From Catajapyx aquilonaris (taxonomy: Eukaryota), in assembly GCA_000934665.2 (NCBI GenBank), contig JYFJ02003483.1:1-41606 (forward strand): 41,606 nt of DNA, read 5' to 3'. The notes beneath the pieces are model-generated. The model saw only the letters and a program-made list of their open reading frames with translations, was not told where the DNA came from and did no database searches. Positions 7,301 through 13,300 of the stretch are shown piece after piece (position 1 is the first letter of the stretch; each line of letters begins with the position of its first letter). The translations under genes were made by a program, and so were the position numbers.

Positions 7301-10300
7301 CCGTCAGTGCTTGCAGGGCTGGCTGTGATGATCATTCTGATCCCACTTAATGCAGTAATTGCCAACAAGGTGAAGAAGCTGCAGATGGAGCAGATGAAAT
7401 ACAAGGATGAACGTGTCAAACTCATGAATGAAGTTCTCAGTGGCATCAAGGTAAATAATAATGATTTTAAAAAACCCTGTTCTGTTATCACCCAAGGTAC
7501 TTTTGCATGAGACAGTGATAATTTATGAAAATAACAGAAGCTCATTCTTGGAACTTACTGTTTGCAAAAGTGTGCAGGTGCATTTTACAGGATGTTACTC
7601 TGCCAAAGTATTGTTTCTGCAGTATGGCTAGGTGTAAAATTGATGGATTAGTTGTGCTGTAAGCTGGGTTTTAGTTCCAACATGGACAGTGCATCAACCA
7701 TATCTGCCATCATAGAAACCACGATTGTAATTTTGGTGGCTCTGATGGCCACACAAAGGCAGGAGAAAAGTGCTTACAACAGGACAGGGCAAGGAAAAAG
7801 TAGGCAGTGGCTGCTGAGGCAGTCAAAACCTTTCTAGTCTCTGCTTTTTCTGTACTGGGGTGTGCACTTCTCTCCTGCCTTCACCTGACCACCAACAGAA
7901 ATCCTATGAATGCAGACATGAATGCTGCATCATCCATGTTTGAACTTGAACATAGGTCCATGGCATTGAATCCATCAATTTTACACTGTGGCCACACTTC
8001 AGACTGTTGATGCTGGCAGAGTAACACCCTGTATTGTACAGCCCTGCTCTGGACTTCAAGTTAGATCTGAATTCTACCTACTCTTGATCATCCACTGTCA
8101 TAACCACGGCTGTAGAAGACTCAGGTTAGGTCACTCCCCACCCACCCCCTGCCGAAGGATTACGCACCGGGTGCTCCCTTGACAGCGCCACGAGGCATTT
8201 CCCAGAGCAATCATGTGGCGACCCTACCGGACTAAGGCTGAACTTTATAGGTACGAAAGGGGAGGGCTACATGCTGGCCCAACATGGCCGCCGGCGGCCA
8301 TGTTGGGCCCCCCAAGCCCTACCCTTTCGTACCTATAAAGTTCAGCCTTAGTCCGGTAGGGTCGCCACATGATTGCTCTGGGAAATGTCTCGTGGCGCTG
8401 TCAAGGGAGCACCCGGTGCGTAATCCCTCGGCAGGTGATAAGCCCAGAAGATAGGGGTAAGTGTCCGTGGGCTGGTCATAACTGAATGTGATATGAGGCC
8501 TGGAAACACACATAGTTGTCATATGCTATGCCTTTGACAGAAAGTTATTAGGAAATTATCATATGCAAGACATGACAACTCCCATGTTTTTCCAAGCCTC
8601 ATGTTGTGCTCGGTTATTACAATGGGTGACCTAGAGTGGGTGAAGTTCAGAAAATGCAACTGGTGAGATCTGCCTTAATCCCAGAACATGGCTTGAAGAA
8701 TGCCTTTTGTAACTTTAGCAGTTTTGCATTCTGCAAGTGTTCCTGGTGATTATAAATGGGTCATAAGGCTTATTATCATGTAGGTTTTGAAACTATATGC
8801 GTGGGAGCCATCATTCCAAGAGCAAGTGATGGACATTCGTGACAAGGAGGTGATTGTTTTGAAGAAATCTGCATACCTGAATGCTGCCGTTTCTTTTGTG
8901 TGGACGTGTGCTCCTTTTCTGGTAAGTTTATTTCTGCTTATCTAAATCAATGTCTCATTTTAAAATCCAGTAAACACTCACCTGGCCATTGCTGTTAATT
9001 GAACCATGCTTATAATATCTGAATTTTTCTGACAAAGCATCCTAATATTTTTGTGCTGCTTGCCATATTCTGTCCAGCACCTCATTGACATTCACTTCAT
9101 TTTAATATAAATGCATTTATTGTCATTTGAGGGATGAATAATTTAAATTTTCCAGTGTGTGAAATAATGTGTTATTAAAGCTGAAGGCAAGAAAACATTG
9201 ACAAAAATGCTGCTGATAACAGGATGCATGCTTTGTTTAGAATATGGATGTAGTGACTTGATGCTTAATAAAGCATGAAACATTGTTGTCGTTGCTTGTT
9301 CTTGTATGTGTCTTTTCTAATCTTTACACTACTTTTAGGTAGCTATAGCCTCTTTCACCACTTATGTTCTTGTGGACAAAAACAACGTCCTGGATGCATC
9401 CACGGCTTTTGTGTCTCTAACACTATTTAACATTATGCGCATGCCTCTAAACATGCTGCCAATGATGATTATTTTTATTGTCCAGGTACAGTAACTTGAT
9501 TATTGGAATATATAAGTAAGCACTTCTTCTAAATAAGTGCCACATAACAAAGACTAATGGTATGGTGAAAAGCATAAAACAGGCATGGCATGCGAATTCT
9601 TAATGCTCCCTTTCTTCCTCCTTTGATTTACTGCATTTTATGTGTCTGCTCTAAAAAATTGCTTTATTGTGTTTGTTGTCTGTAGTTTTATTTAGTGTTA
9701 ATGTGGATTTATCTGGCTGTTGCTGTGTTTGTCTTTGGGTTGTTGGGGTTAAGATACACCAATCTGCATGAGCCATGTTGGGCCTTGTCATTGTGTGGCC
9801 CATTGATTGGTGGATCCCTGCCACAACAGTCAATAGACAAAGATGCCCACTTGAACCCTGTTTTAGGGTTGGATGGGATAATTCCTTTGATAATTTATTG
9901 CATCATGTAGCATAATTAACAGTTTTCTAGTGTAGTTTGTATTGCATTTGCATGTGTTAATATAATGTGAGGACTACGGTTTCATTATGTTTATAATCAT
10001 ATGTTTAAATGTAAAATGTTACAATGTACGTTGAAATAATTGGCATAGGCACGAACACATCTCCAAATGCATGATGGGCAATGAGGTATATTTCTTTTTT
10101 TGGAATTTCTTCTAATGTAGTCATGATGAAAGAGAGACTACTTTGGTAATGTGCATGATGTGTATTGGGCTGTTGAGAAGTCAACAATTTTGTCAGAAAC
10201 ATTGGCAAAAATTACTGATAGCAGCATTTAAAAATACATAAATACATTATTGCACTAAGAGTGGCATGCCAGTTGGAGATGCAGGCTGTTACTCTAGGGT

Positions 10301-13300
10301 ACCTGCCCAGCTGGTATTAAATAAGGTTGTTTTCTTCAATGAACTTACAAGGGAAGTGTCTGTAGGGGTACCGGCCAATCGGCCCGAAAATGACACTTCG
10401 GGTAAATTGCAGGCCAGAAATTCACTGGTGAAAATAAAAAGTGCCAATAGCCAAGGGTTTTCGAGATATGAGCGACAATAGGTGTCAACTCGCAATAACT
10501 GCTAAATGAAACCGCAACCGTAAATGAACGTGTGTACAGGTAAACAAATAATTTATTATTTACTGAGCTTGTGACTATTCGTTTTTCCGAATATGAAGCC
10601 ATGGGGAGAGTATAGGTAAGCATCGGCAGAAGAAAAAAAAAACGTAATGCACTTCCCAGCAAGCTGTTTTATTTCTGTTGATTGCAAAGGGGAAGATATG
10701 CGGTGATAAACGGTGTTGGGAAAAAAAGAAAAAGAAAACGATGCTCCGAGATGAGAGAGGGGGAAAAAAAAGTTGCTTCCCGAGGACTTGAACAGGGAGA
10801 CTTTGGAACATGAAGCGGACACTCTACAGACTGAGCCATGAAGACTGTTTATGATTTCTTACCCCGAATGCGCCCCTTGTCACCGCACAGGTTTGCCGTG
10901 CACCTATCGTCGCTCATATCTTGAAAACGCTTGGCTATTGGCACTTTTTATTTTCACCAATGAATTTCTGGCCTCCGATTTACCCGAAGTGTCATTTTCG
11001 GGCCGATTGGCTGATACCCCTACAGACACTTCCCTTGTTAGTGCCAACCTAACTTCTGACAATTTTTCAGGCTGGTTTCTCCCTGGAATCATTCCAGATA
11101 TATTCATGCCCTTTGGTTGCCATGCCTGGATATGATTTTTGGGGCAGTCCTTTCCAATTCATGCAGAAATGCTGCTGTAAAAATGGTCTCCAGGGGTAAT
11201 TGCAATGGGCTAATATGAAAGCAACAACTTGTCATTCTCTACAGGCTCTTCTGATATTGTCAAATGCTGAGATATCCTACCTCATATTGATATATTGAGA
11301 AGTTTTTGGTGTTTGACAATGCGCCTTTTATTTGCATTGCTTAACATGCAATTTATGAATGGGTTCCTTGTCATCAACAGTGTTATTTTCCAAGCAACAT
11401 ATGGTACTCACTAGTGAGGAAGTTATTTCCAGATGAAAATAATAATAATAGGCATTTGCAGGCATAGGGTAGTAGTTATGATTGTTGCTACTGCTTATAT
11501 CATTTGCCAGGTAGCAATAGCTTCTTTTGCCACATTCATCCTGAGTGACGACAAGCACATCCTGAATGCGGAGACTGCATTTGTGTCGCTGGCCCTCTTC
11601 AACATCCTACGTTTCCCCCTTTCCATGCTGCCCATGTTGATAACCAGCATGGTGCAGGTAAGTAGTAGGCCTTCCCAAAGGATATTTTTTTTAAAAGCAA
11701 GACAGTATTACTAAAGGTTTCTCTGCTGTTGTCTAGCAAGATGTATGGCTTTGGGAGGACTGGAATTTTATTGACCTTGTTATTCACTCTTGACGTTGTG
11801 AATCACAAACAAAGCTTATTTTGTCTAGATACAAGTGAAATCCACTATTTTTGAGGTAATTGAAAACAAAGCCTTGACCTTACACTTGTTTACATGCAAG
11901 GGAAGGCAGAAAATTCTGGCTTCTGGCTCCTTATAAATTTTTTAGGACTAAATAGAACTCACCAGGTGATAGAAGCTACTAGTAGTGTAAATAACTCAAA
12001 CCTATCATAATTGAACTTAATGGATTTCATTTGTATGCCAATGATTTGTTGTAAGTAGTTTGCATTTAAGCTGGACTTGAAGTGTGGAAGACAATGCCAT
12101 GCCTGTTTCTCTTTTATTGTTATTGTGTTTCATTAAGCAAGCTTGTCGGCACTTGTATAGAAGACCTGTTTTAGTTTTATCACCATTTTGTTACATGTTT
12201 TTTTTTTTTGCATTATAAGTTAGTTTTGTCCTTATGGCCTGATTTTGTGGCACTCTTTTTAGTGAGATAATTATGTTTTTGTACTGTGAGAATAGTGAAA
12301 ACTGCACACATAACTTTGTGGGAGGACACTCTTGTTCCATTGTAAAAGCTGTTGGGACATCGTAATGCTGCCTCTTCAAAAGAATTTATAAATCTCTTAT
12401 GATAGTTGGATTGGTATGTAGTGAAACCGTATAATGCAACCTCTCAGATCTGAGGGAAAGCAAAGGTTAAAAAGGTCCGAATTTTTGTTAGTATCTTGTT
12501 ATCATCCAAGATTTAGCAACTGTACACATTTTCCGAGCTTTAAAATTTGATGATGCTCAAACTCTGTCTGTTAGCTATTGATTATAACTGACCATTTCAC
12601 CATAATTTTGCTCAGAAAAAGTGGGAAGAATATATGGGGATATTTACTCCACGTTTTGAAAAACATCTTTGCTAAGACTGCGCCAATTTACTAATGAATT
12701 TCTCTTTAATTGTTAGACGAGTGTTTCACTGAAACGTGTCAACAAATTCATGAATGCTGAAGAGCTGGATGAAAACAGTGTTGGACATGATTTGCAAGAA
12801 GGTCTGTATACAGCATAGTGTTTCATTACCCAAGTTGGTAGTCCAAAGAGGAGAGATGGGGAAGACATGATGTACATTTGATGTGCACAGAGTTGACATG
12901 CAAGACAGGAAATGTAGACCCAAACCTTTTGCTAAGTCTGTACTGAAGTTCAAATGCGGACCCAGGAGAGGCTAATCCATCAGTTCTACTTCATCCCACC
13001 CCTCTTTGGATTGTCAACTTTCACTTGTATATGCTACCGCCAATGTGTGAAATCTGGCATTATATAAAATGCGTAGGTATTTAATACAGGGTGAAGAGAA
13101 ACTCACGGATAATCGTCAGGTAGACTGATAGTACTCGCAAAACTAATATAGGGATGTGCAATTAGTTTTGGGCACCGTTGCGTAGTTAATACGTACGGCA
13201 CCTTTTAAAGTGTAGAGGGCCGGATGGTAAAATATGAGGTACAACTGACGAAGTGCATGGGTGTCGCACCGGGATTCTTACTCTAACGGGATTTGATCAC

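Follow-up and report, generated by a model that had tools for sequence, protein, structure and literature searches.

A probable splicing-control RNA stem at a tandem exon pair in an ABCC1/MRP-type transporter gene of Catajapyx aquilonaris

In the 41,606-nt contig of C. aquilonaris analysed here (JYFJ02003483.1, hereafter the window), two short intronic sequences, S (9577–9591) and D2 (12094–12108), are exact reverse complements of each other and probably form an RNA stem that controls splicing, of a type known from other animals. They lie on either side of exon 1b, the second exon of a tandem pair (1a/1b) in an MRP-type transporter gene. Taken alone, the S:D2 duplex is only moderately unusual; its main support is an independent replicate, the duplex Us:Dd in a second exon cluster of the same gene. 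The reading we favour, with some reserve, is that S:D2 serves as a downstream selector/docking stem similar to stem II of the Drosophila srp gene, helping exon 1a with its weak donor and looping out exon 1b with its consensus donor. We infer that such a stem would form in vivo and shift splicing.

By homology, the gene encodes an ABCC1/MRP-type transporter; it is on the + strand, and most of it is inside the window. Translations of its exons matched the Pfam families PF00664 and PF00005 (ABC_membrane and ABC_tran), residues 277–1536 of a 1536-aa MRP1 homolog were colinear over positions 1123–34964 (tblastn), and the top matches in protein searches carried the names MRP1/ABCC1. All features described below are on the + strand, except for one inverted-repeat element to which no strand was assigned. 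MITE-like and Tc1/mariner elements were abundant in the window. The gene contains two tandem clusters of homologous exons, located at the two sites of the protein where MRP isoforms of Drosophila also differ. The isoforms of Drosophila santomea found as database matches differ exactly at residues 580–617 and 1043–1117, and at the block of exons 1a/1b each fly isoform has one of two alternative versions. Exons 1a and 1b, as well as exons 2a, 2b and 2c of the second cluster, have the properties of tandem-duplicated exon clusters, being homologous within each cluster, identical in length and phase and provided with intact splice sites.

The first cluster is preceded by a constitutive exon (8784–8921; sequence reading and tblastn to homolog residues 509–557), which ends with PFL and has the donor CTG/gtaagt. 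Exon 1a (9339–9485) has a weak donor, CAG/gtacag, and exon 1b (11511–11657) a consensus donor, CAG/gtaagt. Both are bounded by AG/GT and share 63% protein identity. As the preliminary description had it, both are 147 nt long (a multiple of three) and lie about 2 kb apart, and the next constitutive acceptor is at 12716/12717, where the downstream constitutive exon begins (12717–12801; tblastn). Exons 1a and 1b are presumably used mutually exclusively, for which the two versions in fly isoforms give indirect support. The peptide of exon 1a was 57–71% identical to insect MRP exon variants, and the protein comparison revealed no one-to-one correspondence of 1a and 1b to insect variant pairs. The peptides of the two exons (49 aa each), searched alone, had no Pfam match at E ≤ 0.01, and no 100% match to either exon was present among the public proteins searched. 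Metagenome relatives (49–73% protein identity) lacked an intron at this position and had no S-like motif.

Arm S (AAACAGGCATGGCAT), the selector-like element, occupies nucleotides +92 to +106 from the 1a donor, and the docking-like arm D2 lies 437–451 nt past the 1b donor, with 609 nt left to the constitutive acceptor. The exact 15-bp complementarity and the 92-nt distance of S from the 1a donor, both claimed earlier, were confirmed, and the two arms proved to be the sole matches to the 15-mer in the window at ≤1 as well as at ≤2 mismatches. The AAAAG/CTTTT extension that had been proposed was present in the RNAduplex structure at 9568–9572 and 12111–12115. Of all helices joining the introns on either side of exon 1b, S:D2 was the strongest (nearest-neighbour energy −30.1). 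It was also included in the global minimum free energy (MFE) fold of the 3.46-kb cluster (9339–12802), where blocking both arms cost 23.6 kcal/mol, a value to be taken as an upper bound. Neither arm lies in a recognisable transposon, in agreement with the earlier claim: the MITE/foldback-like inverted-repeat element of the 1a–1b intron (10343–11042; 142-nt arms, 94% complementary) is outside the duplex, yet shortens the effective distance from S to 1b, and complementarity of the sequences flanking S and D2 was at the random level (0.30 and 0.20).

How rare the duplex is depends on the null model. An exact run of at least 15 between the two introns was found in 5 of 1000 dinucleotide shuffles, and an energy of −30.1 for the best helix between them was reached by 17 of 2000. 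This energy was also reached in 9 of 700 pentamer-preserving shuffles and in 20 of 231 hexamer-preserving ones, and a crude score allowing G-U pairs and mismatches placed a different helix first, with a value attained by 86 of 1000 shuffles. Under the first three controls the duplex was rarely matched; the mismatch-tolerant score did not single it out. It could also be a chance complementarity without function that falls around 1b by accident, an explanation that we regard as unlikely but still deserving of serious weight. By arithmetic, about 1.2 exact inverted 15-mer matches are expected per 41.6-kb window. Manual sorting of the real sequence gave, for non-repeat helices of ≤ −30.1 whose arms are no more than 3.3 kb apart, about four others in the window and two in 20 kb of locus L002. 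By energy alone, comparably strong isolated helices therefore occur about once per 10 kb of real sequence, which corresponds to a chance of roughly 6–8% for this intron pair. What speaks against accident is that the rarity is specific to the location (5 of 1000, 17 of 2000 and 3 of 380). When the 5′ arm was limited to +50 to +150 nt past the donor, a window picked post hoc for cluster 1, the finding being already known, S:D2 was equalled by 2 of 2000 and 0 of 500 shuffles and at 3 of 380 sliding positions in real sequence. Overall, the intronic complementarity that links the flank of a variable exon to the intron on the constitutive side exceeds chance, with an energy-only background that is not negligible.

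The second cluster, which was absent from the preliminary description, provides the main argument against coincidence. It consists of three homologous 221-nt variants with AG/GT boundaries throughout, 2a (25050–25270; ABC_membrane), 2b (29958–30178) and 2c (31918–32138). Here the test window was taken over from cluster 1, i.e., +50 to +150 past the donor of the penultimate variant was compared with the intron after the last variant. The best duplex of this cluster, Us:Dd (RNAduplex −36.6), has a perfect 13-bp core and a co-linear 7-bp extension. Selector-like Us (30265–30286) comprises the core 30274–30286 and the extension 30265–30271, and downstream docking-like Dd (32346–32367) the core 32346–32358 and the extension 32361–32367. 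Dd is located in the 380-nt intron ahead of the constitutive exon starting at 32519. Us:Dd was matched by 21 of 2000 and 7 of 500 shuffles and at 1 of 389 real-sequence positions. Its geometry repeats that of S:D2, with the 5′ arm at +96 to +108 nt from the 2b donor vs. +92 to +106 nt from the 1a donor and the 3′ arm beyond the last variant, so that a downstream stem looping out the last variant is present in both clusters. In addition, upstream docking-like Ud (22537–22554), whose intron follows the upstream constitutive exon, pairs with Ds (31807–31824), 94–111 nt upstream of the 2c acceptor. This 18-bp stem (−30.0) was equalled by 0 of 500 shuffles and at 2 of 309 sliding positions, its flanks showed complementarity of 0.23 and 0.25, and it is interleaved with Us:Dd in the order Ud<Us<Ds<Dd, which is the order known from srp. 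No selector or partner was found for variant 2a (211 and 416 of 2000 shuffles). Among 13 downstream-type configurations, only two stood out, those in which the looped-out exon is the final variant of its cluster, and the remaining 11 gave 127–469 of 500 shuffles. Among the mirrored configurations, only Ud:Ds of cluster 2 stood out (others 63–475 of 500). Configurations at constitutive exons were unremarkable, which also argues against chance; the closest of them reached 127 of 500 in the downstream and 63 of 500 in the mirrored geometry.

S has a second exact partner in cluster 1, the 11-nt site D1 (TGCCATGCCTG; 11118–11128; 11 bp, −25.0), 383–393 nt upstream of the 1b acceptor. The preliminary description did not mention D1. 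A match of this type to S appeared in 18–30 of 1000 shuffles, and S, D1 and D2 make up a triple of 11-mers that is unique in the window once repeat elements are set aside, a further point against accidental complementarity. In the folding analysis, D1 sat in a local hairpin and the S:D1 pairing probability was about 0; as long as D2 is untranscribed, the predicted partner of S is the 5′ end of exon 1a (p = 0.94). Cluster 1 has one selector with two complementary sites. No second selector clearly competing for D2 was found, the candidate after 1b (11743–11749) being only 7 bp long (−13.4), and multiple selectors sharing one docking site were found in neither cluster. The occurrence of three 11-mer copies within 2.5 kb in mixed orientation, in a window rich in mobile elements, might suggest that they are relics of a short dispersed repeat, or else a motif of double-stranded DNA (e.g., a transcription-factor site), and do not act at the RNA level. 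We consider this very improbable, because the flanks of S and D2 were neither similar nor complementary, no further copies of the 15-mer occurred in the window at ≤2 mismatches, and the equal splice-site offsets in the two clusters would be left unexplained.

Besides its complementarity, S contains two tandem copies of GCATG (GGCAUGGCAUGC), which belong to a cluster of ten copies around exon 1a (9226–10268), likewise missing from the preliminary description. Ten copies were observed vs. 1.18 expected, and GCATG was the top-ranked pentamer in 9201–10300 (p = 4.9e-7). Two copies lie upstream of 1a, one within it and seven within 780 nt downstream of it; near exon 1b there was none except one inside the exon. 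On reading the sequence, five of the ten correspond to UGCAUG in RNA. In metazoans, (U)GCAUG is recognised by proteins of the Fox-1 family, whose target exons may be either promoted or repressed (PMC2777236). The enrichment of this motif in the introns flanking 1a agrees with Fox-1/Rbfox-type elements described there, which it resembles in the density of GCAUG by an alternative exon, mostly on the downstream side; those act by protein binding and not by an RNA duplex, and the copies here are candidate elements. S could accordingly be mainly a tandem GCAUG within an Rbfox-type enhancer for tissue-specific inclusion of 1a, with its complementarity to D2 and D1 incidental or modulating access. 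To us this seems unlikely, since a motif cluster does not explain the exact reverse complement in the next intron, including five flanking bases (AAACA/TGTTT), and GCAUG is missing from the arms of cluster 2, where GCATG is not enriched. Moreover, such an enhancer would be compatible with pairing of S and D2 rather than exclusive of it.

Under the favoured reading, S would pair with D2 in the pre-mRNA and exon 1b would be looped out. The weak 5′ splice site of 1a (gtacag) would be brought to about 700 nt from the acceptor at 12717, vs. 3.2 kb, and the 1a isoform would be favoured. When the stem is absent, splicing would by default select exon 1b, which has the consensus donor (gtaagt). The preliminary description had considered a structural mechanism of exclusivity plausible. 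The presence of the duplex in the MFE fold, the parallel in cluster 2 and the srp precedent support the structural part of this proposal; a preference for 1a would be explained, but not exclusivity. The latter is unexplained by S:D2 alone because nothing in this scheme blocks 1a-to-1b splicing and no upstream stem selecting 1b was found. Analysis of cluster 1 revealed no element preventing 1a-to-1b splicing; an upstream-type stem was not detected in the −150 to −50 window (353 of 500 shuffles), and the intron upstream of 1a (8923–9338) formed no helix with the 1a–1b intron better than −19.3. Complementary sequences flanking exons have also been linked with circular RNAs, and exons 1b and 2c are both flanked in this way, so the inverted match could drive back-splicing of 1b into a circle instead of linear exon choice. 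This appears highly improbable: the arms are short (13–15 bp), and 1b and 2c are members of clusters of homologous alternative exons, a setting in which looping has been documented to select exons for linear splicing (PMC4691838).

The closest known system is exon 4.1/4.2 of Drosophila serpent (srp), for which bidirectional RNA pairing was shown experimentally (Yue et al., 2016; PMC4691838). As described there, Us-Dd (stem II) joins an element downstream of the first variant to the intron before the constitutive exon and loops out the second variant; it is needed for including the first variant, whose splice sites are weaker. The weak 1a donor and consensus 1b donor agree with this arrangement. 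Cluster 1 resembles srp in having two exons and a downstream stem looping out the second of them, and cluster 2 likewise has an interleaved upstream stem Ud-Ds. The differences are that cluster 1 has only the downstream stem, with a Ud-Ds equivalent undetected, that the gene and arm sequences are not the same, that S has the extra complementary site D1 upstream of 1b, and that the stems at our locus are predicted ones. For insect and Branchiostoma MRP genes, RNA structures that compete with one another and have their docking sites downstream have been reported (Yue et al., 2017, RNA Biol 14:1399, via PMC6071210 and PMC8791459; also cited in PMC7434440 and PMC9741552). These concern the same gene family as our case and share with it the exons that form tandem arrays and a docking site, here putative, past the cluster, but have several selectors per docking site or ensembles of stems, compared to one strong selector per cluster here. 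In Drosophila 14-3-3xi and Dscam exons 4 and 9, the docking site is downstream of the last variant (Yang et al., 2011, via PMC4691838 and PMC6071210). There too, the selectors follow the variable exons and pairing brings the chosen exon near the downstream constitutive exon; those systems have multi-selector competition and proven conservation, whereas ours has a single predicted strong selector per cluster. Human ATE1 exons 7a/7b are a mutually exclusive pair under competing intronic complementary elements (PMC7797038), similar to cluster 1 as a two-exon cluster with such elements; in ATE1 the central element is contested from upstream of the first and downstream of the second exon, whereas the two partners of S, D1 and D2, lie on either side of exon 1b.

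As a tentative extension to which we assign a low probability, S may be dual-purpose, its twin GCAUG acting as an Rbfox-type enhancer of 1a, and D1 and D2 either masking these sites or using them for looping. If this is true, one short RNA element would be both a structural switch and a protein signal specific to certain tissues, and the splice-site offset of about 100 nt, common to the three stems of the gene, would represent a spacing rule for such switches.

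The exon translations matched ABC_membrane and ABC_tran domains, and residues 277–1536 of an MRP1 homolog (1536 aa) were colinear with positions 1123–34964 in a tblastn mapping, with the gene on the forward strand. The closest proteins were MRP1/ABCC1 of insects, crustaceans, and others, with identity of up to about 75%; protein searches returned no 100% match to exon 1a or exon 1b. These two exons (9339–9485 and 11511–11657, forward strand) are both 147 nt long with AG/GT bounds, and their translations are 63% identical. The flanking constitutive exons, also on the forward strand, end at 8921 upstream and start at 12717 downstream. 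The donor of exon 1a is weak (gtacag), and that of exon 1b is consensus (gtaagt). Among the matches returned were eight MRP1 isoforms of Drosophila santomea, whose differences were confined to two blocks, residues 580–617 (two versions) and residues 1043–1117 (five versions among the eight isoforms). Exons 1a/1b map to residues 569–617, and a tandem double copy of the 49-aa exon was present in two insect gene models; thus, alternative splicing at the position of this first exon cluster is already known from arthropods. The identity matrix did not settle the orthology of 1a and 1b to particular insect variant pairs. Further downstream, a very short intron (16285–16340, ~56 nt) separates two NBD1-region exons; the exon ends near 16544–16570 and near 17795 were placed approximately.

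The long-range duplex reported in the preliminary description was found as an exact 15-bp match, in which the arm S after exon 1a (AAACAGGCATGGCAT, 9577–9591) is the reverse complement of the arm D2 after exon 1b (12094–12108). Searched across the 41.6-kb window with up to one and up to two mismatches allowed, the 15-mer matched only at S and D2. The exon geometry also agreed, S starting 92 nt into the post-1a intron; D2 lies 437 nt past the 1b donor and 609 nt short of the next acceptor. The proposed AAAAG/CTTTT extension appeared in the RNAduplex structure, and the arms do lie outside the transposon-like element, an inverted repeat with 142-nt arms at 10343–11042. Complementarity of the arm flanks was at random level (0.30 and 0.20). 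MAFFT alignment of the post-1a and post-1b introns revealed no residual homology, so an origin of the arms by tandem duplication is not supported. The predicted minimum free energy (MFE) fold of 9339–12802 includes S:D2 with 14 of 15 pairs plus extensions, and in the constrained MFE prediction blocking both arms costs at most 23.6 kcal/mol, which is an upper bound because the constraint kept both arms fully unpaired.

In the comparison with shuffled introns, the check suggested initially, the duplex was rare by exact run and, in most shuffle types, by stacking energy; a score allowing G-U pairs and mismatches did not discriminate, and whole-intron RNAduplex was uninformative. Dinucleotide shuffles of the introns (2025 and 1059 nt) yielded an exact run of at least 15 in 5 of 1000 cases. 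The contiguous-helix stacking energy of S:D2, −30.1 kcal/mol, was the best between the introns (runner-up, −23.5 kcal/mol) and was attained in 17 of 2000 shuffles, in 9 of 700 pentamer-preserving shuffles (the 15-mer itself intact in 1) and in 20 of 231 hexamer-preserving shuffles (intact in 4). With the crude G-U/mismatch score, the top helix paired a purine run with a polypyrimidine tract, and its score was attained in 86 of 1000 shuffles; this metric was rejected. Two others were rejected as well, whole-intron RNAduplex, which gives a global duplex (23 of 28 shuffles scored lower), and a 40-nt-window duplex scan dominated by polypyrimidine/purine pairing. In real sequence, 80 helices of −27 kcal/mol or lower had arms within 3.3 kb, most of them in transposon-like inverted repeats. 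Manual sorting left about four other non-repeat helices of −30.1 kcal/mol or lower in the window and two across 20 kb from a different eukaryotic locus. By our own arithmetic, this background corresponds to a chance of roughly 6–8% for the post-1a/post-1b intron pair. The answer on chance varies because the null models differ, real sequence being the harsher one. Taken alone, the S:D2 duplex is suggestive, not compelling, and pure chance complementarity is a rather doubtful explanation that still carries some weight.

S has a second exact partner, D1 (TGCCATGCCTG, 11118–11128; 11 bp, −25.0 kcal/mol). D1 lies upstream of exon 1b and D2 downstream, so that two S-complementary sites flank this exon. 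With S fixed, a partner of D1 strength arose in the rest of the intron in 18–30 of 1000 k-let shuffles, and one of D2 strength in 0–1 of 1000. As an RNA helix, S:D1 was rejected: its pairing probability was about 0 in the pre-1b ensemble fold. D1 is predicted to fold into a local hairpin with 11189–11200, and while D2 is still to be transcribed, the predicted partner of S is the 5' end of exon 1a (probability 0.94). The 11-mer has three copies in the window, all inside one 2.5-kb region, and among eight 11-mer triples the S/D1/D2 triple alone has no copy in a repeat element. That the arms are a repeat remnant or a motif acting at the DNA level is very improbable, the local recurrence of the 11-mer notwithstanding.

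S contains two GCAUG motifs, and the (U)GCAUG element is recognized by the Fox-1 family (PMC2777236). They belong to a GCATG cluster at 9226–10268, with 10 occurrences against 1.18 expected (window mean, 1.27 per kb), and GCATG ranked first among all pentamers there (p=4.9e-7). This density around exon 1a suggests that the exon may be under Fox-1/Rbfox-type regulation. Enrichment of CATGC around exon 1b (p=4.3e-4) did not remain significant once corrected for the 1024 pentamers. S could be mainly a GCAUG enhancer of Fox-1/Rbfox type, with its complementarity incidental or only modulatory. We consider this unlikely as the main role of S; such an enhancer would be compatible with pairing.

If formed, the S:D2 stem would bring the exon 1a donor close to the acceptor at 12717 and would sequester exon 1b. 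Drosophila serpent (srp) offers a parallel: mutagenesis has shown bidirectional pairing at srp exons 4.1/4.2, where a second stem loops out exon 4.1 (PMC4691838), and the design seen here corresponds to it. The same paper places weaker splice sites on the pairing-dependent exon; here, the weak donor is that of exon 1a. This likeness, the weak 1a and consensus 1b donors, and the presence of S:D2 in the MFE fold together make S:D2 a probable downstream selector/docking stem, which would favor exon 1a and leave exon 1b as the default. In geometry and statistics, the locus fits the docking-site/selector family. That family has several selectors per dock, a feature not seen here; no second selector competing for D2 was found in cluster 1. 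Nothing that would block 1a-to-1b splicing was found in the locus. A stem around exon 1b might also be a driver of back-splicing, which we regard as the most improbable of these possibilities.

A second cluster in the same gene (21566–32518) served as an internal replicate. Residues 1022–1138 of the homolog match three places in the window, corresponding to three homologous 221-nt (3n+2) exons, 2a (25050–25270), 2b (29958–30178), and 2c (31918–32138), at the multi-variant block of fly MRP. The post-2b intron and the 380-nt post-2c intron pair best through a perfect 13-bp helix (30274–30286/32346–32358, Us:Dd), which with a co-linear 7-bp extension reached −36.6 kcal/mol in RNAduplex. Us lies 96–108 nt past the 2b donor, and S lies 92–106 nt past the 1a donor. 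In a downstream-type test, the segment +50 to +150 nt past the donor of the penultimate variant was compared with the intron after the last variant. The cluster 2 value was attained in 21 of 2000 and 7 of 500 shuffles and at 1 of 389 real-sequence sliding positions. For cluster 1, from which the segment was taken and for which its choice was post hoc, the counts were 2 of 2000, 0 of 500, and 3 of 380 (two of these positions in dispersed repeats). The remaining 11 of 13 definable configurations gave 127–469 of 500 shuffles.

The mirrored test (−150 to −50 nt before the acceptor against the upstream intron) gave a single outlier in cluster 2, an 18-bp stem of −30.0 kcal/mol (22537–22554/31807–31824, Ud:Ds). 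Ds lies 94–111 nt before the 2c acceptor. The stem was matched in 0 of 500 shuffles and at 2 of 309 sliding positions, with random flank complementarity. Other configurations gave 63–475 of 500, and cluster 1 gave 353 of 500, with no upstream stem. The cluster 2 stems are interleaved (Ud<Us<Ds<Dd). No partner stood out for variant 2a (211 of 2000 and 416 of 2000 shuffles).

The introns hold many MITE/foldback-like inverted-repeat elements (8148–8435, 10343–11042, 13084–13534, 13532–13889, 14285–15415, 18958–19203, 24536–24989, and 27213–28754). In the element at 8148–8435, 121-nt arms, 98% complementary, flank a GC-rich palindrome. Its palindromic center forms a 13-bp GC-rich helix with the post-1a intron (8276–8288/9772–9784, −30.5 kcal/mol), which probably is a fragment of a repeat or arose by chance; this pairing would place the upstream constitutive exon and exon 1a in the loop. 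An isolated 20-bp helix (12832–12851/13001–13020, −30.9 kcal/mol) lies just 3' of the constitutive exon 12717–12801. Tc1/mariner-type transposase remnants are present at 2479–3454 (reverse strand; DDE_3, HTH_Tnp_Tc3_2) and 35877–36552 (forward strand; Mos1 HTH_48). The only Rfam match was a tRNA-like sequence at 37576–37643 on the reverse strand (RF00005, 34 bits), which has no relation to the duplex and is a tRNA gene or else the head of a tRNA-derived SINE; similar sequence lies near 38600–38720. (ATT)n/(AAT)n microsatellites occur at 1405–1443, 28443–28516, and 38434–38492, and poly-C/poly-G runs adjoin a 9-N gap at about 38150.

Among eight loci of distant metagenome relatives, GT after the matched segment was missing in seven, mostly with no intron there, and none carried an S-like motif; one (L002) had one exon copy within 20 kb. 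Tandem exon arrays are published for metazoan MRP genes; for insect MRP, RNA structures that compete and use downstream docking sites are reported, and structures are also reported for Branchiostoma MRP (PMC6071210, PMC7434440, PMC9741552, PMC8791459). In C. elegans, mrp-1 carries a set of four mutually exclusive exons, each 156 nt long (PMC4165533). With such arrays and structures published, the Catajapyx locus would be an added case of an established mechanism, and a description of this architecture from related species may already exist; the current picture of the mechanism would be unchanged by it. The locus could serve as a compact test system for the interplay of RNA structure and Rbfox-type factors: its stem is perfect over 15 bp and overlapped by a GCAUG pair, and one donor is weak where the other is consensus. 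If the proposed pairing is true, the gene would be an independent MRP/ABCC1 example in which long-range RNA pairing controls mutually exclusive exons, and both clusters would have their stems ~100 nt away from the splice site that they regulate. It would support the idea that pairing is a general solution for tandem-duplicated exons and one that has evolved repeatedly, also for 3n-length pairs beyond policing by NMD.
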